A DNA stretch of 64,000 nt from Acidobacteriota bacterium. GTDB lineage: Bacteria > Acidobacteriota > Blastocatellia > RBC074. Positions 9,201-60,200 of this stretch are shown here, in pieces; position 1 is the first letter of the stretch; every line of letters begins with the position of its first letter. Location: contig JANRKX010000087.1 of the NCBI GenBank assembly GCA_033763255.1, positions 40,075-104,074 of the forward strand, in the 5' to 3' direction. The position numbers were made by a program, and so were the translations under genes. The notes below the pieces were generated by a model. The model ran no database searches and was not told the origin of the DNA. It was given only the letters and a program-made list of their open reading frames with translations.

Positions 9201-11546
9201 TTACAACTCCAGATTTCGCAGCCTAAGCGCGTTCGTAATCACCGACACTGAACTGAACGTCATCGCCGCGCTGGCGATCATAGGGCTGAGCAGCAGTCCG
9301 AACGCCGGATACAAAATTCCAGCCGCCAGCGGCACGCCCAGCAAGTTGTAAACGAAGGCGAAAAACAGGTTTTGCCGAATGTTGCTCATCACCGAGCGAC
9401 TCAAACGGCGAGCGCGAACTATGCCGCGCAAATCGCCTTTAACCAAAGTCAGCCCTGCGCTTTCCATCGCCACGTCGGTTCCGGTTCCCCCATTGCTGAT
9501 TGCTATGCCAACTTCCGCCGCAGCCAAAGCCGGGGCGTCGTTGATGCCGTCGCCGGCCATTGCCACAACTCTGCCTTCGTTTTGCAGCCGTTTGATGGAT
9601 GCGGCTTTTTGATCGGGCAGGACTTCGGCGACGACTTCGGCAATTCCAAGTTCGCGCGCGACTGCTTCGGCAGTTTTGCGGTTGTCGCCGGTCAGCATGA
9701 CGATTCGCAATCCGTCTGCCTGAAGCTGCCTGATTGCTTCAGGCGTTGACGCCTTGATCGAATCGGCAACGCCTAGCAATCCGACAACTCGCCCATCAAC
9801 CGCTGCCAGCATCACCGTCTGCCCCTCGGCGCGAAGCTGTTCGGCTTTGTCAGCAATCGAACCGTCAATGTTGATCGAAAACGATTCCAGCAACGCCTGA
9901 TTGCCGAGCGCAACTTGCTTGCCGCCAACTCGCCCAACGACGCCTTTGCCTGTCAGCGACTGAAATCCGTCAACGCCAACCAAATCCAATTTGCGCTCTT
10001 CTGCGGCTGCAATAATCGCCGCCGCCAACGGATGCTCGCTCGCCCGTTCCAAACTCGCAGCCAATCGCAAAAACTCCTGCTCATTCTCGCCGTCGTTCAA
10101 AATCAACGACACCAACCGCGGTTTGCCTTCTGTCAGAGTTCCGGTTTTATCCACGACCAAAGTGTTGATCTTGGCCAGCGTTTCCAAAGCTTCGGCGTTT
10201 TTTATGAGCACGCCAGCCATCGCGCCGCGCCCGGTTCCCACCATCACAGACATCGGCGTAGCCAATCCCAGCGCGCACGGGCAGGCGATAATCAAAACCG
10301 CGACGGCATTGACCAGCGCGTAAACAAACCGAGGTTCAGGGCCGACAAAGCTCCAAACCAAAAACGTGATGACCGAAACCAACACCACAGTCGGCACAAA
10401 CCACGCCGAAACAGAATCGGCCAAACGTTGAATCGGAGCGCGACTGCGCTGAGCTTCACCAACCATCCGCACGATTTGCGCCAGCAGAGTTTCGCTGCCG
10501 ACTCGTTCGGCTCGCATAATGAAACTGCCAGTGCCGTTGACTGTGCCGCCAGTAACTTTGCTGCCGGATTCTTTTTCGACCGGGATCGGTTCGCCTGTCA
10601 CCATCGCTTCGTCAACGGAACTGCGGCCTTCTGTGACAACGCCGTCCACCGGAACTTTTTCGCCGGGACGCACGCGCAACAAAGCTCCGGGAAAAACCAA
10701 ATCGAGTTCAATGTCTTCTTCGTTGCCGTTGGCTCGAACGATGCGCGCAGTTTTTGGAGCCAAGTCCAACAGCATTTTGATCGCGCTGCTGGTCTGGCTG
10801 CGCGCGCGGAGTTCCAAAACTTGCCCTAGCAAAACCAGAGTCGTGATGACGGCGGCGGCTTCAAAGTAAACGGCTACTTCGCCGCCGTGACCTTTGAACG
10901 AAGCCGGAAAGATTCCGGGAAAGACCGTCGCCACGACGCTGTAACCAAACGCCGAGCCTGTGCCGATGGCAATCAATGTGAACATGTTCGGGCTGCGATT
11001 CGTGATCGAGTTCCAACCGCGAACAAAAAACGGCCAACCTCCCCACAACACAACGGGCGTTGCCAAAACGAGTTGCAACCACACAACCAGCCGATGGCCT
11101 ATGGCGTGTTGTACCGGCTGACCCGGAATCATCTCCGACATTGCCAGCGCAAACACCGGAAAGGTCAACGCAAGACAAATCCAAAACCTCCGCCGCATAT
11201 CGTCCAGTTCCGAAGTGTCTTCTTCCGCCGTCGGCGAAAACACTTTCGGTTCCAAAGCCATTCCGCACTTCGGACAAATGCCGGGGCCGATTTGCACGAC
11301 TTCGGGATCCATCGGGCAGGTGTATTCAATCGCCGTTGAAGTTTCGGCTGGCATTTCCGTTTTGTGGGTTGGGTGAAGAATCGCTTCAGGATTGGCGGCG
11401 AACTTTTCGCGGCAGCGCGGATTGCAGAAAAAATACGTCGTGCCTTGATGTTCGAACTTGCCCGCAGCCGTCGCGGGGTTGACCTTCATTCCGCACACGG
11501 GATCAACGTGCAAAACAGGTTGGAAGACGGGTAAGGATTTCGCCAT
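9201..11546 (-). CDS. copA: copper-translocating P1B-type ATPase (CopA-like) with N-terminal TRASH/YHS-like and HMBD metal-binding domains
   Basis: Motifs CPC ([13 protein letters not shown]), DKTGTLT and GDGINDAP are present. The N-terminus carries CGMKV...YFFC and CPMDPEV...CPKCGMAL. Confidence 0.9.
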
Positions 11547-11556
11547 AACAATTCCA

Positions 11557-12768
11557 TCAGTTTGGCAGCGGCATCGTTGCCGTCATGACGCGCGAGCTTG
11601 TCCACGCGAAAACCAGCGTTTTACCGCCCCTACTTTTTTCTGAAAGCACCATTTGCGGAAATCCGTTGGAACGAGCCGTGCCGTTTGGCGCAACAGCGAT
11701 GGACGCATACATCTTGCCGTCAGGATAAACACGTCGAACGCGCACCGAACCGCTGCCCGTCGCTTTTTCCAGCCAGCAGACCAGCGCGCTGCCGTCGTTG
11801 AGCATCAGCGTTTCGACTCGGCCAACGGGGTTGCCATCATCAATCGTGATCGGTTTGCCGAAGCTTTCTCCGGCGTCGGAGGAAAACGCCAGCCGGACTT
11901 GAGGTTTGTCACCCGCGCCGGTGTACCACGCGACTGCGACTTGTTTGCCAGCAGCCGCCACCGAAGGGCCGTTGACCGGGCAGCCATTCAGTTTCCAACC
12001 GTCGTCGTGAACGGCGCGCGGTTCAGCCCATTTGCCAGCTTTCAACCGGACGATGGAAATGTCGCGCATCTCTTCGTCCGAACGGTCGCGGTAAACCACC
12101 ACTGGCCCTTCGGCAGTCATCGCCGCCGAAGTCTGGCAACATTCACAAACGCGGGCATCCAATTTGGCTTCATCGGTCAACGTTCCATCGCGTTTGATCT
12201 TCACGTAACGCAAAGTCATGTTGCCGTGCCCATGCCCGTGATCGTCTTTACCGCCAGGAGTCATTTCGCGTCCGTCCAGCCAAACAGCCGCAAGTTGTCC
12301 GTCTTTGGTGGCAAACAGCGAAACAAATCCGTGTTCGGCTTTCACGCCGTCACGATGTGCGACAAAAGGTTTGCTCCAGGTTTTGCCGCCGTCGAACGAA
12401 CGCGAAATCGTCACGTCGTAATCAAACGTGCCGGAGCCGCTTTTGACCAGCCAATGCGCGGCCAGAGTTCCATCCGGCAAAACAATCATCGAAGGAAAAT
12501 CCGCCCAATTGACGAACCAGTTGGAGCCTTCGGCAATGATGCGCGGCGCTGACCAACCGTCATTTTCTTTCACCGCGAAACGCAACGAAGCTTTTCCTTC
12601 GCCCAATCGTTCGATCCAACTCAGATAAACTTTGCCGTCGCGCGAAACGGTCAAGTTGGGTTGACCGCTGCCCGCGCCCGCTGGTGAAACCATCTCGCGC
12701 ACTTGCGACAACGCCAACACAGGCAGCAACCAAACCAACAGAAGCGAACTGATTCGAAGCTTATTCAT
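11557..12768 (-). CDS. BNR/Asp-box repeat beta-propeller protein (sialidase-like fold), exported
   Basis: A signal peptide ([21 protein letters not shown]) is present. Repeated S-x-D-x-G-x-T-W/F motifs occur ([23 protein letters not shown]). The start may instead be at 12813. Confidence 0.7.
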
Positions 12769-12773
12769 AGTTT

Positions 12774-14372
12774 TTATCCGTGATGTTGATGAGCGTCTTT
12801 TTTGTTCGGCCATTTCGGGCCGGGTTCGTATTTTCCTTCTTTGATGAGCGCCATCATGCGGTCGTATTGGTCAGGCGGCAAGACTCGCACCAAAGTCATC
12901 ATCCCCATCATCGCCCCCGTCCAGCCTTCGGGCAGCCAGGAATTTTCAGGCCGTGCAACTTCGGCATCCATTGTCATCCACATGTCTTGCGGATAACCGG
13001 GCACGCGCTTTTTCTTCGCGCCCGCGACCTGACTTTTCGGCAATGTCAGCGCCATGTTGCATTTCGGACAACTGCCCGGTTTGTCGGATTTCACTTCGGG
13101 GTGCATCGGGCAGGAATAAACAACAGCCGCATTCTTGTCTTGCCCGACGCCGTTTGAAACGCTCTGTTCCAGCGGAATGCCCAGAGTTCGCCCAAACGCG
13201 GGGCCGTTTTCGTCAGACAGCGCGTGACCTTTGGTGATGATGCCCATGCCGGATTCCATTTCACGGCTGGGCGGTGCCATGTGTTCGGAATGATTCATCG
13301 GCCCGACCATCGAAACCATCTGGTTCATCATGTGGTGCGGCAAATGGCAGTGAATCATCCAATCACCAATGTTCGTCGCTTCAAATTCGATGTCACGCGC
13401 CTGAGCTACGCCAACCAGAACGGTGTTGCCTGGATACCAGCCGACTTCTGGAATGCGCCCGCCTTCGGTTCCAGTGACGTAAAACTGCATGCCGTGCATG
13501 TGAATCGGATGATGATCCATGCTCAGATTGACCAGCCGAATCCGCACGCGCTCGCCGTGTTTGACGATCAGCGGAGTGCAGGCCGGGCCGGCTTTGCCGT
13601 TGAAAGTCAGCCAGTTGAATTCCATCGCCAATGTGTTCGGCACAGTGTTGTTAGGCAAAATCGCCCAGCCTTGCAGAATCAAGCCGAAGTCTTTGTCCAC
13701 CTTCGGCGTTTGCGCGTTGCGCGGATGAACGATGAAAAATCCAATCATGCCCATCATCTCCTGCATAGGCATGTGCGAGTGATAAAAGTACGTGCCGTGC
13801 TGATGCAGCATAAATTCATAAGTGTGAGTTTCACCCGGCATAATCAGCCACTGCCCCAAGCCCGGCACGCCGTCTTGCGACATTGGAACTTCCAAGCCGT
13901 GCCAGTGCGGAGTGGTCGGCTCTGGCAGATTGTTGGTGAAGTGAATGCGGACGCGGTCGCCTTCCTGAACTTCGATGGTTGGTCCCGGCAGGCTGCCGTT
14001 GTAACCCCAGGCGTCCACCACGCGCGCATCAGCCCACGGCGCGGCTGGCAGAAATTCCGTGCGGACAGGTTCGGCGCTCAGATGAAAGACCTTCACGCCG
14101 TTTTCCAGATTGTACGGCAGCTTCGGAATGTCAGGCGTGAACACCGGTTTGAATGGCGCGGGCGCTCCCAGAGTTTCCGGCTGCGAAGGAATTTTGGACG
14201 GAGTTGAGGGAGCCGCTGGCTTGGGCGGCGTGTGTTGATGTTGCGAATGATCCTGCACGGCAGGTTTGGTTTCTTGATGTTGATGCTGCTGAGCGTTTGC
14301 GGTCTGCGTTGCGACCAGACTTGCGCCCAACATCGAAGTGCGGCGAAGAAAATTGCGACGATTTGAATTCAT
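12774..14372 (-). CDS. multicopper oxidase (Tat-exported) with a C-terminal CopA-type heavy-metal-binding domain
   Basis: The Tat signal [11 protein letters not shown] is present. Cu-site motifs are HWHGLEV, HCHLPHH and HPIHMHG. The C-terminal YSCPMHPEV...CPKCNMAL parallels the CopA N-terminus. The start at 14372 has a ggagag RBS. Confidence 0.85.
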
Positions 14373-14459
14373 AAAAGACTCTCCATTCAAGCTTTCAACG
14401 CAAAGACGCCAAGCCGCAAAGAAAAACCTTGGCGACTTTGTTTCTTAGCGCCTTTGCGT

Positions 14460-15821
14460 TTATTGATTTGCCGCTGAGTTATTGCCAGAAACTCCGTTTG
14501 GCGCGTCCAGTCCGCCGGTCAGCAACAACCCACGCAGTTTGACGACGTGTTGCCACAATTCGACCAGCGACGAAATGTATTCCGTGCGCGCCTGAAACAG
14601 CGTTCGCTGTGTAAAAAGCACTTGCGGATAAGCCGCGCCCATTTGCCGAAACTTGGCCAGATACAGGTCATAAGCCCGTTGCGCGCGCGGCAGAACTTCG
14701 CGCTGATAGCGAACCGCCACGCCTAGCGAGTTTTGATACTGGGCAAAGCTTTCGGCCAGTCGTGCGCGCAAAGCCAATTCCACACGCTGAACTTCGCGTT
14801 CGGCGGCGGTCAGGTCAGCTTTCGATGCCGCGACGTTTCCCTGATTGCGATTGAAAATCGGCACGCGAACGCCTGCTTCCAGACGACCTTCCCAGCCGGT
14901 TTTGCCGCCGTAAAACTCCGCCCATTCGTTGCTGTACCCTACGCCGCCGCGCAGATAAATGTCTGGCTTCGGCTCCGCTTTGGCGCGACTGACGACGGCT
15001 TTGGCGCGCTCGACTCCGGCCAACGCGCGTTTTATTTCGGGGCTGTCGCGCAACAAACCGGCCAGCATTTCTTCCTGCACCATCACCGGCGCAGTCGTTT
15101 CCAAAGCGTTTTCCAGCCGCGTCGGTTTCAAGTTCGGATCGTTGACCACCGCCGCCAGCGTCTGCCAAACGCGGCTGTAATCATTGCGTGCGCGCAGCAA
15201 ATCAATTTCGGCGCGTTGCAATTCGACTTCGGCGGCCAACACGTCCGGGCGATCTGCCGCGCCTGTGTTGAACAGGTCTTCGGAAATTTCCGTCGCTTCG
15301 CGCGTCAATTCAGCCAGTTGCTGACGCAGATCGAGCAATTGCTGAGCGCCCACGACTTCGTAATACAGCATTCGCACGGCGTTCAGCACGCGCAACCGCT
15401 GAGCTTCGGCTTCGGCCTGCGTTTGAGCTTTTTCCTGCGCGGCGATGTTTTTGCTTTTGGCCAGCTTGCCGCCGGTCAAAATGGTTTGTTCGACAAAAAA
15501 ACCTTGTCCGTTGCGATACGGATAGACCAGCGAATTGAACGCCAGCCCGTCGCCTTCGTACCCGATGACTGGATTTGGCCACAGCCCGGCCTGGCGGCGG
15601 CGACCTTCGGCGGCCTGAATGGCGGCTTCGGCCTGACTGAGAGTCGGATTGTTTTTGATCGCCATTTGTTCGAGCGCGGCCAGCGTCAATTCTGGCGATG
15701 ACTGTTCTTTGGTTTGTGTGATGTTCGGTTGCTGAGCCGTTGCGGTTGGAATCAGCAAGGCGAAACATAATGCCGCTGAGGCTCCAGCACGAAGCCGCAC
15801 GACAATTGATCTGAATGACAT
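14460..15821 (-). CDS. TolC-family outer-membrane efflux protein
   Basis: A signal peptide is present. The outer-membrane-factor two-repeat helical/beta pattern is seen (LTLAALEQMAIKNNPTLSQAEA..., PDIYLRGGVGYSNEW). Confidence 0.8.
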   Translation of the reverse strand: MSFRSIVVRLRAGASAALCFALLIPTATAQQPNITQTKEQSSPELTLAALEQMAIKNNPTLSQAEAAIQAAEGRRRQAGLWPNPVIGYEGDGLAFNSLVYPYRNGQGFFVEQTILTGGKLAKSKNIAAQEKAQTQAEAEAQRLRVLNAVRMLYYEVVGAQQLLDLRQQLAELTREATEISEDLFNTGAADRPDVLAAEVELQRAEIDLLRARNDYSRVWQTLAAVVNDPNLKPTRLENALETTAPVMVQEEMLAGLLRDSPEIKRALAGVERAKAVVSRAKAEPKPDIYLRGGVGYSNEWAEFYGGKTGWEGRLEAGVRVPIFNRNQGNVAASKADLTAAEREVQRVELALRARLAESFAQYQNSLGVAVRYQREVLPRAQRAYDLYLAKFRQMGAAYPQVLFTQRTLFQARTEYISSLVELWQHVVKLRGLLLTGGLDAPNGVSGNNSAANQ

Positions 15822-15912: not shown

Positions 15913-16389
15913 TTAGATTCTCAGGCTGAGCTGAAAACCCGTATGCGGCGGCGAGTGAATCGCGGAGTCTTGAATCGGAATGGACGAGGAGTCGAAAACG
16001 AGTTTGCTGTCAGGCCACAACGAAGCTGCCAGCACAGCAACCTCTTTACCAATTTGCGGCGCAACCGTCGAAGGCAACGGTTCGCCTTCGGGCGTTTCGC
16101 GCTTCATCGCACAGCAGTTGCGATTCATCATCGCAGCAAAAACTTTGCTGGCGGCAGCTTGCTGTTCTGAATGCGCGTTTGGGGCTGAATGTGTCTGCTG
16201 AGCTTTCTTTTCCGCCGCTTTTTTCCGGTGACAAGGCGGAAGGTTTTCATCTGATTCGGCGGCTTGTTCGACAACCTGCGGCGCAGACAATTCTGCCACC
16301 TTCACGCAACACAATCCTCCGCACAGCCCAAACGAAAGCAGAAGTTGCGCGGCCAGGAGCATTGAAATTGTCTTTTGCAGAAACCTCAT
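15913..16389 (-). CDS. hypothetical exported Cys/His-containing protein
   Basis: A signal peptide is followed by CGGLCC and NRNCC motifs and a His/Lys-rich segment. Support comes from ORF length and operon position only. Confidence 0.35.
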   Translation of the reverse strand: MRFLQKTISMLLAAQLLLSFGLCGGLCCVKVAELSAPQVVEQAAESDENLPPCHRKKAAEKKAQQTHSAPNAHSEQQAAASKVFAAMMNRNCCAMKRETPEGEPLPSTVAPQIGKEVAVLAASLWPDSKLVFDSSSIPIQDSAIHSPPHTGFQLSLRI

Positions 16390-56315: not shown

Positions 56316-58139
56316 ATGAAGAGTTTCTTTTTTGAGTTTGCCCGAATCAAGACTGGCATTCTGTTGGCAATGGTTTTGCTGGCGGCGTGTTCCGGCGGCG
56401 GAAACGGTTTGAAACCCGTCGCCAGCAATGCAGAACAATTCATCGCCGACGCCGAAAAACGCTATCTGGAAGTTGCCATTAAAGAAGGTCAGGCCACTTG
56501 GGTGCAGGAAAATTTCATTACCCCAGACACCGACGCCATCGCCGCCGCCGCCAAAGAAGAAACGATCAAGGTCATCAAAGAATTGGCGGAACAGGCTCGA
56601 CAATTCGACGGACAAAATCTGTCGCCTGATGCTGCTCGCAAATTGAAGCTGCTGAAACTGGCATTGGCTCTGCCTGCTCCTGGCAATGACGAAGAACGCA
56701 AAGAATTGGCGGACATTTCGGTCAAGATGAATGGCGCTTATGGCGCAGGCAAATACTGTCCCGACGGCGACAGCGGAAAATGCCTGAGTTTGGGCGATCT
56801 GGAAAAGATTCTGGCTTCGAGCCGCAATCCGGAAGAATTGAAAAAAGCCTGGCTGGGCTGGCATCAAGTTTCGCGCAGTTATCGCAAGGATTACGCGCGC
56901 TTCGTCGAACTGGTCAACAAAGGCTCGAAAGAAATGGGCTTCAAAGACAACGGCGCAATGTGGCGGTCGAATTACGACATGGAACCGGACGCCTTCGCCG
57001 CCGAAATGGAACGCCTGTGGTTGCAGGTCAAACCGCTTTACGATTCGCTGCATACTTACGTCCGCGCCAGACTGCGGCAAAAATACCGCGACGCGGTTCC
57101 AGCCACTGGCCCGATTCCGGCGCATTTGCTGGGCAATATGTGGAGCCAGCAGTGGGGAAACATTTACGAACTGGTAAAACCGCCGACCAACGATCCGGGC
57201 TTTGACCTGACCAAAATTCTGCAAAGCCGCAAAACCGACGCTCGGCAAATGGTCAAATACGGCGAAGGCTTTTTCACCTCGCTTGGCTTTGAAGCTTTGC
57301 CGCAAACCTTTTGGGAACGCTCGCTGTTCACCAAACCGGCTGACCGCGATGTCGTCTGCCATGCCAGCGCCTCGGATTTGGACAACCAAAAAGACGTTCG
57401 CATCAAAATGTGCATCGTCATCAACGAAGAAGATTTCACCACCATTCACCATGAACTCGGCCACAACTATTACCAGATGGCTTACGCGCCGCAATCACCG
57501 CTTTATCAAAACAGCGCCAACGACGGTTTCCACGAAGCCATCGGCGACACGATTGCTCTGTCAGTAACGCCGGAATATCTGAAACAGTTGGGTTTCATCA
57601 ATGCCGTGCCGGACGAAAAAGCCGATTTGGGATTGTTGATGCGGCAGGCGCTCGACAAAGTCGCGTTCCTGCCGTTCGGTTATCTGGTGGATCAATGGCG
57701 TTGGAAAGTCTTTTCCGGCGAAACCGCTGCCGCCGATTACAACAAATCGTGGTGGGAACTGCGCGAAAAGTATCAGGGAGTTTCGGCTCCTGAAACGCGC
57801 AGCGAATCGGATTTCGACGCCGGAGCCAAATACCACGTCGCGGGCAACGTGCCTTATGCGCGTTACTTTCTGGCGCACATTCTGCAATTCCAGTTTCACC
57901 GCTCGCTGTGCCGCGAAGCCGGTTACAAAGGCGCGCTCAACCGCTGTTCGATTTACGGCAATAAACAGGTGGGCGAAAAGTTAAAAGCGATGTTGGCGAT
58001 GGGGCAAAGCAAACCTTGGCCGGAAGCGCTGAAAGCCATGACCGGCGAAGATAAAATGGACGCCACCGCGATCATTGATTATTTCGCGCCGCTGAAAACA
58101 TGGCTGGACGAACAGAACGCTGCCATGAGCGGAAAGTAA
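56316..58139 (+). CDS. peptidase family M2 (angiotensin-converting-enzyme-like dipeptidyl carboxypeptidase), lipoprotein
   Basis: The lipobox LLAAC is present. The zinc site is HHELGHNYYQ...HEAIGD. Length and collinearity match the ACE catalytic domain. Confidence 0.85.
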   Translation: MKSFFFEFARIKTGILLAMVLLAACSGGGNGLKPVASNAEQFIADAEKRYLEVAIKEGQATWVQENFITPDTDAIAAAAKEETIKVIKELAEQARQFDGQNLSPDAARKLKLLKLALALPAPGNDEERKELADISVKMNGAYGAGKYCPDGDSGKCLSLGDLEKILASSRNPEELKKAWLGWHQVSRSYRKDYARFVELVNKGSKEMGFKDNGAMWRSNYDMEPDAFAAEMERLWLQVKPLYDSLHTYVRARLRQKYRDAVPATGPIPAHLLGNMWSQQWGNIYELVKPPTNDPGFDLTKILQSRKTDARQMVKYGEGFFTSLGFEALPQTFWERSLFTKPADRDVVCHASASDLDNQKDVRIKMCIVINEEDFTTIHHELGHNYYQMAYAPQSPLYQNSANDGFHEAIGDTIALSVTPEYLKQLGFINAVPDEKADLGLLMRQALDKVAFLPFGYLVDQWRWKVFSGETAAADYNKSWWELREKYQGVSAPETRSESDFDAGAKYHVAGNVPYARYFLAHILQFQFHRSLCREAGYKGALNRCSIYGNKQVGEKLKAMLAMGQSKPWPEALKAMTGEDKMDATAIIDYFAPLKTWLDEQNAAMSGK

Positions 58140-58341
58140 GTTTCTCCACGAAGGAACGCGAAGATTCACGAAGCACATTAATGACTTCGTGTTTCTTCGT
58201 GTTCATAACCACAGTCAAAGCAATTGCGATCTGACCGAAGCATAAATGGTTGACATGTCAGCAATTCGCCTATTCGCTGTAATCTGCGACAGAAAAATTG
58301 AGTTATTGTGACAAAAACATCAAAAATTCTGTTTCAACCTC

Positions 58342-58371
58342 TTGACACTTTGAAGACTGTTGAACTATAAG
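58342..58371 (+). promoter_or_regulatory. sigma70-like -35/-10 (TTGACA-N18-TATAAG) in the AT-rich islet
   Basis: Found by motif reading only. Confidence 0.25.
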
Positions 58372-58485
58372 CCCTTTCGCCACCCCAAAAGTTATTTGAT
58401 AAGTGATTCCCGGCAAGGTTTGCCCGAAGGCAACACTTCTCAGGCAACACTTCTCAGTGTGCCTTCCAAAAATAGTGTTTTATCA

Positions 58486-58505
58486 GATAGGTGTTAGCAC
58501 CTATC
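58486..58505. promoter_or_regulatory. perfect palindrome GATAGGTG-ttag-CACCTATC, 23 bp upstream of the islet gene start (operator-like)
   Basis: Seen directly in the sequence. A tandem 14-bp direct repeat (GGCAACACTTCTCA x2, 58429-58456) lies just upstream. Confidence 0.4.
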
Positions 58506-58528
58506 TCGACAACAAGGGGAACTAAAAT

Positions 58529-59470
58529 ATGAAATATGACCACTCACAAACTAGGAACGTCAGGCTGTCTTGCGTTATTAGCGCGACAACAACTATGAAG
58601 CTTTTTACTTTGTATTTGAAAGGTAAAGAGAAACAACTCAGATGCATTCTTATGGCTATTAGCTTACTCGTAAGCCAAACTATTGCCTTAGCCGGAGTTA
58701 ATGCGCATGGAAACCAGTGGCCTGCTTTGAAAGGAACGGCAGCAACAAACGATAAACTGATTCAAGAATCGAAGGAATACTCTTTCGGCATTGACGCTGA
58801 TGGGCGCAGTTTTGTGAAGCGAAAAGGTGATGGCACAATAGCTACATTTCTTGACTTACAGCGGAATAAAGTCCAACTGGAAGTAAGAACTCTTGATGGC
58901 AGCAGAGGCATTGTCGGAATTGAAAGGCTCAGAAAAGGAGAAACGTTATTTCATATGACAGATGTGAGCGGTGAATCACTAACACTTCGTCAGTATAAGG
59001 TCGGTTTCGACCAGCATACGACCTTCGAAGTTGATAGTTTCTCAGTCACACTAACATCAAACGATCTAAAAAAACTTTCTACTCCACTTTGGAATGAAAG
59101 TAGTGGCCTCTTTCAACTTGGTGAGCGTCTTCGATTGAAACCTAGCCTCTTTCATTTTATTGAACGAGCCAATGCTCTTGATCCCAAGATTTTCCATCTT
59201 GCTCTTATGGCACAAGCAAGTGCGGGCGTGGCAGAAAATTTTGGGTATGCAGAACCTGGCAGTTGCACTACAGGTGTAATTAAGTGTATCGGTAATTTGC
59301 TACTTCACTTTATTGACGTTGTTGGTATTGTTGCTGGCTGTGCAGGCGCTCTGACAGGTATTGGAGCAGCAGTGTGCTATACAGCAATTGCCGCTCATCC
59401 TGTAACGGCTGCACTTGCTGCAGCCGAATGTGCAGATGCAGCTAGTGATTGTCAGAACCAAGCTAATTAA
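58529..59470 (+). CDS. hypothetical secreted protein with a C-terminal Cys-rich glycine-zipper hydrophobic module (bacteriocin/toxin-like), in a low-GC islet
   Basis: An aagggga RBS is present. An internal signal-like segment is MAISLLVSQTIALAGVNA. The C-terminus is GSCTTGVIKCIGN...GIVAGCAGALTGIGAAVCYTAIAA...AECADAASDC. The gene is about 43% GC, against about 60% in the flanks. Confidence 0.55.
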   Translation: MKYDHSQTRNVRLSCVISATTTMKLFTLYLKGKEKQLRCILMAISLLVSQTIALAGVNAHGNQWPALKGTAATNDKLIQESKEYSFGIDADGRSFVKRKGDGTIATFLDLQRNKVQLEVRTLDGSRGIVGIERLRKGETLFHMTDVSGESLTLRQYKVGFDQHTTFEVDSFSVTLTSNDLKKLSTPLWNESSGLFQLGERLRLKPSLFHFIERANALDPKIFHLALMAQASAGVAENFGYAEPGSCTTGVIKCIGNLLLHFIDVVGIVAGCAGALTGIGAAVCYTAIAAHPVTAALAAAECADAASDCQNQAN

Positions 59471-59483
59471 AAAGGGGGGTTTT

Positions 59484-59753
59484 ATGGACGGAAGATTGAT
59501 TTTACAGTTTGTTGCCATTGGGCTTGTGTTCTACCTTGTGTGCCACATCACCCTTTTGGCTGCTCGAAATAGCTTGAATAGCTCATTGCGGTTGGCTAGA
59601 CGCGTAGTGTTAGTTGCGTATCCACTTGCTTGCGCTTGTCTCGTGTACGCATCTGAAAATTTAACGCTACGTATTTACGCTGCTCTTCTAGCAATAGGCT
59701 CAATTTTTGTTGCAATTGCTATAAAGCGAAAAGTGCAAACCCAAACTGCATAA
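59484..59753 (+). CDS. small 3-TM membrane protein (putative immunity/partner protein)
   Basis: It lies 13 nt after the upstream stop and has a strong aaaagggggg RBS. The 89-aa product has three hydrophobic helices. GC is low. Confidence 0.5.
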   Translation: MDGRLILQFVAIGLVFYLVCHITLLAARNSLNSSLRLARRVVLVAYPLACACLVYASENLTLRIYAALLAIGSIFVAIAIKRKVQTQTA

Positions 59754-59779
59754 TGACTTTGGAAGGGCAATGGTAAAAC

Positions 59780-59832
59780 CAAAGATCAAACCTTTCGGGG
59801 CAGAAATTCACTACGAAAGGTTTGATCTTTTA
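59780..59832. terminator. strong hairpin (15-bp perfect stem) closing the islet, bidirectional
   Basis: The motif is AAAGATCAAACCTTT-cggggcagaaattcactacg-AAAGGTTTGATCTTT followed by taatctt. Confidence 0.55.
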
Positions 59833-59879
59833 ATCTTAGGTTAGTATTGAATTAGCAATTCGCCGGAAACCGCGAGAAC

Positions 59880-60200
59880 TCAGCCAAAAATCTGCCCCAG
59901 TTTCATCGCCACCATCGCATTGCCTTCGACTTTGATCTTGCCGGACATAACCGCCATCATCGGATTGAGTTCTCTGCGATACAGCAAATTGACCGTTTCA
60001 ATCGAAAGCCGCAACGTCACGTCAGAGTCGTGATCGTGGTGCGTCACGGAATTTGGCACGGATTTGCCATCCACAAACACGACGCTGCCGCAATCGAAGA
60101 CAAACTTGATCGTGGCGTCAATACCGGAATTTTCCCCCAGCTTGTGGCGAACTCCGGCGGCAAATTGGTCAACGGTGAAGTCTTTGTTTTCTTCGGACAC
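59880..60200 (-). CDS. SCP2 sterol-carrier-like domain protein
   Basis: The 106-aa product has the SCP-2 pattern (...ATIKFVF......V.....V.....HD.D....LS.E....L..G.L....A.MSGKIKVEGN...AMKL..IF). Confidence 0.75.
   Translation of the reverse strand: MSEENKDFTVDQFAAGVRHKLGENSGIDATIKFVFDCGSVVFVDGKSVPNSVTHHDHDSDVTLRLSIETVNLLYRRELNPMMAVMSGKIKVEGNAMVAMKLGQIFG

Follow-up and report, generated by a model that had tools for sequence, protein, structure and literature searches.

Our understanding of how periplasmic copper oxidases acquire Cu(I) has so far come mainly from CueO-type Met-rich inserts. CueO of E. coli and PcoA/CopA of Pseudomonas syringae are multicopper oxidases (MCOs) with three cupredoxin domains, a twin-arginine translocation (Tat)-type signal, a link to a Cu(I)-exporting P1B ATPase and an extra Cu(I)-binding element by the type 1 (T1) copper site. 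This element is an unstructured or helical Met-rich insert which captures Cu(I) and feeds it to the oxidase. Here we describe an MCO encoded on the minus strand of a 64-kb stretch of Acidobacteriota DNA (contig JANRKX010000087.1; we call the whole analysed stretch of 64,000 nucleotides the window, and all coordinates are positions in it). Like its described counterparts, the window oxidase has a Tat-type signal, is linked to a Cu(I)-exporting P1B ATPase and has a T1-side Cu(I)-binding element, which in its case is predicted. However, it has two cupredoxin domains rather than three, and its element is a tethered, folded Cys/Met/His knuckle: an HMBD (PF19335) takes the place of the Met-rich insert, and the insert as a whole is only ~5% Met.

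Other described systems resemble parts of this oxidase. Its best fold matches are the two-domain MCOs mgLAC (2zwn, metagenomic), 3g5w (Nitrosomonas europaea) and 3gdc, which at 28–33% identity are also among its best sequence matches; they provide no coverage past approximately residue 360, i.e., they have neither the HMBD-bearing cassette nor the conserved C-terminal element of the window oxidase. The HMBD itself has a counterpart in the N-terminal metal-binding domain of Legionella pneumophila CopA (LpCopA), a small domain built from beta-sheet in which a CPxCGx turn forms a rubredoxin knuckle (PMC11970713). In its nuclear magnetic resonance structure (8OVL), M44, C59 and M61 hold Ag+ in a trigonal site, with C42, H45 and C56 alongside in a zinc-finger-like arrangement (PMC11970713). 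The two domains belong to the same family and have all six candidate ligand positions in common, the knuckle being CPxC-x-M with Asn in the window and Gly in LpCopA. The LpCopA domain lies in the cytoplasm on the N-terminal side of a pump, follows an autoinhibitory tail and has been read as a sensor, whereas the window HMBD forms part of an insert in an oxidase and is predicted to reside in the periplasm. By description it can also be likened to the N-terminal metal-binding domain of SilB/CusB, which combines a periplasmic trigonal-sulfur Ag(I)/Cu(I) site with a rubredoxin-knuckle-like fold on an envelope detoxification component, although that component is a resistance-nodulation-division (RND) adaptor and not a redox enzyme. 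Finally, PcoA–PcoB and CopA–CopB place a periplasmic MCO gene beside a gene for an outer-membrane protein, as nearly all loci studied here do, but the partner there is a CopB/PcoB barrel (PF05275) and in the window it is a TolC-family outer-membrane efflux protein (OEP, PF02321).

An HMBD inserted in a two-domain oxidase

The oxidase gene and the parts of its product are as follows, from the N-terminus onwards.

12774–14372, minus strand: MCO, an intact, continuous open reading frame (ORF) with its ATG at 14372, 532 residues
14292–14372, minus strand: Tat signal peptide, residues 1–27 (RRNFLRR; ANA/QQ cleavage), read from the sequence, with R5, R6, F8 and L9 invariant
14148–14291, minus strand: His/Gln/Pro-rich low-complexity stretch, residues 28–75 (~48 residues), with a predicted local distance difference test score (pLDDT) <60
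13698–14147, minus strand: cupredoxin domain 1, approximately residues 76–225 (H156-W-H158, H198-S-H200), Pfam Cu-oxidase_3, pLDDT >90
13302–13697, minus strand: cupredoxin domain 2, approximately residues 226–357 (H288-P-I-H291-M-H293; T1 loop H341-C342-H343-LP-H-H347-MMNQ-M352), Pfam Cu-oxidase_2
13125–13301, minus strand: linker, residues 358–416 (semi-conserved motif GMG-x4-G-x-ALS-x3-GP-x-FGR), low pLDDT
13041–13124, minus strand: HMBD (PF19335), residues 417–444 (C421-P-M423-H424...C435-PK-C438-N-M440-AL), Pfam E 1.7e-13
12813–13001, minus strand: C-terminal element of the oxidase family, residues 458–520, shared by every aligned homologue, HMBD-bearing or not, pLDDT ~96
12774–12812, minus strand: His-rich C-terminus KKDAHQHHG and stop codon, read from the sequence, with H530 nearly invariant

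The longest version of the ORF begins with a TTG at 14390 and encodes 538 residues, but homologues begin at residues matching the ATG at 14372, so we take that ATG as the start, in agreement with an earlier note on this DNA. Pfam coordinates for the Cu-oxidase domains are given below in the 538-residue numbering, and other residues in the 532-residue numbering.

Judged from alignments and from an AlphaFold2 model, the oxidase holds a cassette of ~95 residues, made of a ~60-residue low-confidence linker and one folded HMBD, which is inserted after the T1 ligand loop. The cassette starts at most 10 residues from the canonical axial Met of that loop (M352). In the model, pLDDT is below 50 at residues 350–379 and 391–413 and is ~93–95 in the HMBD. 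The clearest view of its extent comes from a syntenic relative (locus L004, protein P0017) with 83% DNA identity: relative to it, the window gene has ~94 extra in-frame codons (residues 361–454), and the entire cassette is missing from the relative.

The earlier note, which was made from the sequence alone, had described a C-terminal fusion. The HMBD is instead internal (residues 417–444 of 532), and what comes after it is a conserved strand (492–498) and helix (500–512) which belong to the oxidase family. The motif of this C-terminal element is present in 78 of the 80 genome loci surveyed below, farther relatives end similarly (e.g., GGMFTILKV), and aligned homologues with no HMBD (P0017, P0020, P0025, P0058 and P0094) keep the post-module residues. 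Because these residues are common to HMBD-less homologues, and because L004 has them without the cassette, the module sits in a cassette and is not a terminal fusion. The same applies to the Met/His-rich tail: the strings that had been cited, including HQHHG, are there, but the tail is a feature of the oxidase family. We considered and rejected it as a piece of the added domain, since all aligned homologues have it, with or without an HMBD, and it is predicted with high confidence.

Homologues were drawn from two sets. The first was the 120 best clusters (52–95% identity), and the second was the 80 best-matching loci from GTDB species-representative genomes. PF19335 is present in 107 of the 120 clusters, drawn from assemblies in NCBI, JGI, ENA and Logan and carrying for the most part Blastocatellia or Acidobacteriota labels, and in 21 of the 80 loci. 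An artefact of assembly, a frameshift or a merged ORF would have to recur in all of these, and it would have to do so within a continuous ORF whose downstream part is the same family's conserved end. We found nothing in favour of an artefact and regard the chance of one as negligible: the joining of oxidase and HMBD is genuine and recurs in many independent assemblies.

Both Pfam and the model indicate that the rest of the protein is a two-domain MCO. Pfam finds only two cupredoxin domains, Cu-oxidase_3 at residues 125–225 (E 6.7e-40, 136 bits, cut-off 21) and Cu-oxidase_2 at residues 261–360 (E 3.7e-26, 92 bits, cut-off 20.4). All four copper-ligand motifs (HxH, HxH, HxxHxH and HCHxxxHxxxxM) are present, and they are invariant in one of our homologue alignments (A2). 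The AlphaFold2 model, built with 107 sequences, gives both domains pLDDT >90, and Foldseek matches its core to 2zwn, 3gdc and 3g5w with E ~1e-24 and target-normalised TM-scores of ~0.72–0.73. Some relatives have a third cupredoxin domain, a C-terminal Cupredoxin_1 (PF13473) placed after the C-terminal element (P0092, P0097, P0102, P0104, P0107, P0117 and L003:10001-11998), and these often have two HMBDs too.

The oxidase should be exported to the periplasm, as predicted from its signal, in which R5, R6, F8 and L9 are invariant in a second homologue alignment (A1). Because the twin-arginine signal is on the oxidase, its HMBD should be periplasmic as well. The mature N-terminus that follows the signal is rich in His and Gln (QHQHQ, HSQHQH) and differs in length among homologues; this His/Gln/Pro-rich stretch may be another metal-binding region.

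Identity and ligands of the HMBD

Pfam places the HMBD of the oxidase at residues 418–443 (424–449 in the 538-residue numbering) with 50.7 bits against a cut-off of 23.6. The domain had been named in the earlier note as PF19335 in both the oxidase and the CopA ATPase encoded two genes downstream, and Pfam searches were positive for both proteins (oxidase E 1.7e-13, CopA E 3.6e-11). When the C-terminal third of the oxidase was compared with PDB sequences, the only significant matches were to the N-terminal metal-binding domain of LpCopA (8ovl_A, E 1.4e-7; 3rfu), with C421, M423, H424, C435, C438 and M440 aligning with C42, M44, H45, C56, C59 and M61 of 8ovl. Across 130 modules from the 120 best homologues, the first five of these positions (C, M, H, C, C) never vary, and 129 have the final M. 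By these matches, the module is a bona fide PF19335 domain of the kind found in CopA. The alignment also has the Met-Cys-Met triad for Ag(I) in LpCopA kept in the oxidase module, and we infer that this copy binds Cu(I).

A different use of the same ligands has to be weighed here. C421, H424, C435 and C438 make up a classic Cys3His knuckle, and the LpCopA fold resembles zinc-binding domains and is, per its authors, compatible with Zn2+ (PMC11970713). The module could therefore serve maturation or structure, taking up Zn(II) or Cu(I) while the protein is still cytoplasmic, either as a zinc ribbon or as a built-in chaperone which loads the four catalytic coppers. Tat substrates fold before export, which suits such a role, as does the fusion of HMBDs to SCO1/SenC copper-insertion factors. 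However, the close relative P0017/L004 matures without the module, and conservation at the Met positions specific to the Ag(I)/Cu(I) site is just as strict as at the Cys and His positions. We consider a role in maturation or structure improbable.

A variable slot at the T1 loop

The position occupied by the cassette is a slot whose content differs among relatives. In the 120 best homologues it holds the following.

One HMBD, strict motif: 72
Two tandem HMBDs, strict motif: 29
HMBD variant outside the strict motif: 6
No HMBD: 13

In the genome survey, 13 of the 21 loci with an HMBD have one copy and eight have two, while the 59 HMBD-less loci come from Pyrinomonadaceae, Vicinamibacterales, Bryobacterales, Terriglobia, Nitrospirota and others. 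The earlier note had remarked that Met-rich inserts are the more common arrangement in MCOs, and this holds among the relatives, where stretches rich in Met or His occupy this very slot. Where the HMBD is absent, the slot can hold His/Gln-rich runs (EQHQHHG, GGHGGHGGHG) or Met-rich runs (MQGMQGMQGM, MPGMDH, MADMPGMDHLKMPGMTMP, DMPNMPDMPQGMQM), and in P0121, which is 57% identical to the window oxidase, it is MQDMPEMSHNMQNMPGMKHDMQNMPGM. The linker motif is found in HMBD-less relatives too and is missing from the short forms P0017 and L004.

In a tree of the catalytic core (neighbour-joining, without support values), HMBD forms occur in at least three places and HMBD-less forms are nested in the window's clade, which implies that the HMBD was gained or lost repeatedly. 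Cluster representatives at 50% identity hide the fusion: among 150 of them, an HMBD was found in one fragment only.

The result is a natural series at one T1-side position, running through no insert, a His-rich insert, a Met-rich insert, one HMBD and two HMBDs. The slot thus accommodates different Cu(I)-binding chemistries that can stand in for one another, attached at the copper which oxidises the substrate. This is the main argument for a role in capture and feeding like the one established for the Met-rich inserts of CueO and PcoA.

Proposed role of the cassette

With moderate confidence, we propose that the HMBD is a tethered periplasmic module which captures Cu(I) and feeds it to the T1-proximal substrate site of a cuprous oxidase, probably working with the adjacent OEP. 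This proposal draws on domain identity, insertion position, conservation, predicted compartment and slot interchangeability; from these we infer the hand-off to T1 and the cuprous oxidase activity. The Tat system would export the two-cupredoxin oxidase to the periplasm, where the tethered HMBD would pick up Cu(I), including ions pumped out by the CopA encoded nearby. The HMBD would then present this Cu(I) to the substrate site by the T1 copper for oxidation to Cu(II), and after the cassette the chain would re-enter the core as the conserved strand and helix. The copper context is provided by a P1B-1 CopA encoded two genes downstream of the oxidase and by MerR regulators and a second MCO in related loci, and HMBDs on other envelope proteins of these bacteria (see below) count for periplasmic use of the module.

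Several points weigh against capture and feeding. The match to the Tat model TIGR01409 is marginal, at 16.5 bits with a cut-off of 16.7, and in an oxidising periplasm the three HMBD cysteines could form disulfides. The module is not essential, as close relatives do without it. JGI names for some homologues read “manganese oxidase”, so Cu(I) is only the probable substrate. Lastly, the LpCopA and SilB precedent domains have been interpreted as sensors and not as delivery modules (PMC11970713).

This last point leads to the idea that the cassette is a sensor or lid: its HMBD and linker would cover or control the T1/substrate site and free it once Cu(I) binds, making the cassette a switch and not a conduit. 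The LpCopA domain was proposed to be a copper sensor which relieves autoinhibition, and a sensor role was also proposed for the similar periplasmic domain of SilB (PMC11970713). The cassette is attached right at the T1 ligand loop, and the semi-conserved linker motif (GMG..G.ALS...GP.FGR) would be unexpected in a purely passive tether. Capture nevertheless fits better than a precise switch with a copy number that ranges from zero to two and with swaps for Met-rich or His-rich runs, and in two loci the module is on the OEP and not on the oxidase. We therefore think a sensor or lid possible, though unlikely. Close relatives which differ by the cassette alone make it testable whether a folded thiolate Cu(I) site serves substrate delivery or sensing.

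The “manganese oxidase” names raise a further alternative, in which the enzyme oxidises Mn(II), Fe(II) or phenols and its HMBD reports copper status or docks a partner. Curated models place the oxidase outside the CueO and PcoA families: it scores 166.4 against a cut-off of 478.95 with the CopA/PcoA model TIGR01480 and 93.6 against 525 with the CueO model NF008205. Both scores are far below the cut-offs and count for a non-copper substrate, and the nearest solved structures are two-domain laccase-like enzymes. On the other hand, the JGI names of these several homologues are automatic annotations, and the context is copper-specific: a P1B-1 CopA is encoded nearby, relatives have MerR regulators, and the inserts are Met-rich or contain HMBDs. 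A non-copper substrate is, in our judgement, quite unlikely, and Cu(I) capture for a cuprous oxidase remains the reading we prefer.

The CopA pump and the question of direct handover

The ATPase encoded on the same strand as the oxidase has an HMBD of its own.

9201–11546, minus strand: P1B-1 Cu(I)-exporting ATPase CopA, TIGR01511 602.6 bits, cut-off 397
11382–11510, minus strand: YHS domain of CopA, residues 13–55, PF04945, E 2.1e-11
11244–11324, minus strand: HMBD of CopA, residues 75–101, PF19335, E 3.6e-11, 43.2 bits; cytoplasmic by ATPase topology

CopA has the motifs CPC422, DKTGT466, YN733 and MTFSS762. The earlier note had the same module opening this protein; the HMBD is indeed there, but the YHS domain precedes it, so it is not strictly first.

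From the shared domain, the earlier note had suggested direct Cu(I) delivery, i.e., that matched HMBDs pass Cu(I) between oxidase and pump. PF19335 is on both proteins, and their genes are two apart, on the same strand and separated by short gaps. However, P1B ATPases have their N-terminal metal-binding domains in the cytosol (PMC11970713). The two HMBDs should be on opposite sides of the inner membrane and should not meet, because the oxidase has a Tat signal and the N-terminal domain of CopA is cytosolic.

Distribution points the same way. CopA lies within the fetched flanks (~6 kb in most cases) of only 23 of 84 loci, the window included. Its HMBD-like motif is present in 22 of these 23 two-gene loci, and the oxidase is HMBD-less in 15 of those 22. 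The oxidase and CopA HMBDs thus do not co-vary, as the CopA motif is kept regardless of the state of the oxidase.

The modules also differ in kind, since those of MCOs form a separate subtype with the signature CPMHPEV-x-S-x-K-x-G-x-CPKC. Mean identity is 0.69 within MCO modules against 0.58 between MCO and ATPase modules, and the window's own two modules are identical at 16 of 26 positions (62%). We also considered the oxidase module as a recent copy of CopA's and rejected this, given the 62% identity and the subtype which MCO modules share across orthologues.

Opposite predicted compartments, no co-variation and a separate MCO subtype together indicate that the shared domain is a module widely used in the lineage and not a matched pair, and we regard direct handover through it as highly improbable. 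It is plausible, by analogy with ordinary CopA/CueO logic, that Cu(I) exported by CopA is the substrate of the oxidase and is caught by its periplasmic HMBD.

The OEP partner and HMBDs on other envelope proteins

Next to the oxidase gene is the gene of its probable partner.

14460–15821, minus strand: TolC-like OEP, Pfam OEP (PF02321), E 1.3e-47

In 82 of the 83 related loci (L001 and L003–L084), the oxidase and OEP genes are direct neighbours and share a strand, and the lone exception is cut by a contig end. The order is OEP then MCO in Blastocatellia-like and Pyrinomonadaceae loci (L001–L059) and mostly MCO then OEP in the remaining loci, including Terriglobia, Bryobacterales and Vicinamibacterales. 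This near-universal pairing points to an undescribed envelope copper-detoxification module, and the oxidase probably works together with the adjacent OEP. Two proteins, P0123 (856 residues) and P0146 (752 residues), are predicted as MCO–OEP and OEP–MCO single polypeptides, respectively; these may be real fusions or gene-calling merges.

Two loci link the OEP to the HMBD itself. In L075:7517-9145 (plus strand) and L078:5984-7537 (plus strand), the OEP has PF19335 right after its signal peptide (E 1.5e-9 and 2e-10), and the oxidase beside it is HMBD-less. The HMBD can therefore sit on either partner. With the N-terminal fragment of the HMBD-bearing OEP as a query, mostly short fragments were returned. 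PF19335 also occurs on a CusB-like adaptor (L017:11343-13157, minus strand) and, in many Pyrinomonadaceae, fused to SCO1/SenC copper-insertion proteins (among P0302–P0343). By these domain matches, Acidobacteriota have reused the HMBD widely as a copper module of the envelope.

A more specific proposal is that the oxidase and its dedicated TolC-like OEP form a self-contained pair for copper disposal from the periplasm to the outside, comparable in function to PcoA/PcoB but assembled from different components. The HMBD, on either partner and in one or two copies, or a Met-rich substitute for it, would capture CopA-released Cu(I) and couple this capture to oxidation at the T1 site, the ligand loop of which bears the module. 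We put this forward tentatively and consider it doubtful as a whole. No RND pump of the usual size is encoded in the window, where the longest ORF is 914 residues against 1,061 for the RND pump of L003. Ten large ORFs of the window were scanned, a scan which does not cover a small membrane-fusion adaptor, and they are either housekeeping genes, otherwise unrelated to efflux, or without a Pfam match.

We found no description in the literature of the MCO–HMBD architecture or of the OEP–MCO pair, although the former is visible in automatic annotations, and the only papers we found citing PF19335 concern a ferredoxin-fold algal chaperone, which is not relevant here. The host group, Acidobacteriota, consists of abundant but poorly studied soil bacteria.

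Gene neighbourhood and record labels

The oxidase gene belongs to a minus-strand run of five ORFs arranged head to tail: a hypothetical protein of 158 residues, the OEP, the MCO, a BNR_2-like protein and CopA. The two not yet listed are the following.

15913–16389, minus strand: 158-residue Cys-containing hypothetical protein upstream of the OEP, without a Pfam or NCBIfam match
11557–12768, minus strand: BNR_2-like secreted protein between the MCO and CopA, Pfam BNR_2, E 7.2e-11

Homologues of the 158-residue protein hold the same position, immediately upstream of the OEP, in L001 and L004–L008. The BNR_2-like protein has an HGHGH run (residue 177) and a CECC motif (residue 208), and the latter is kept, once as CDCC, in all full-length homologues from related copper loci. 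We regard this protein as a candidate metal-binding propeller.

No MerR/CueR-type regulator was found in the 64-kb window, whereas in L001 and L004 the gene just upstream of CopA encodes such a regulator; related loci contain MerR regulators and a second MCO. A promoter and terminator scan of the cluster yielded fewer sites than shuffled sequence did. Elsewhere in the window, positions 58001–60000 have a GC content of 0.439, against ~0.53–0.56 in the rest, and contain an ORF of 313 residues (58529–59470) without a Pfam match.

Eight of the oxidase-bearing metagenome-assembled genomes (L008, L009, L012, L014, L015, L046, L070 and L081) are labelled Heliomicrobium, Heliobacteriaceae, Bifidobacteriaceae or Limisphaerales. 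These non-Acidobacteriota labels are probably binning or naming errors.

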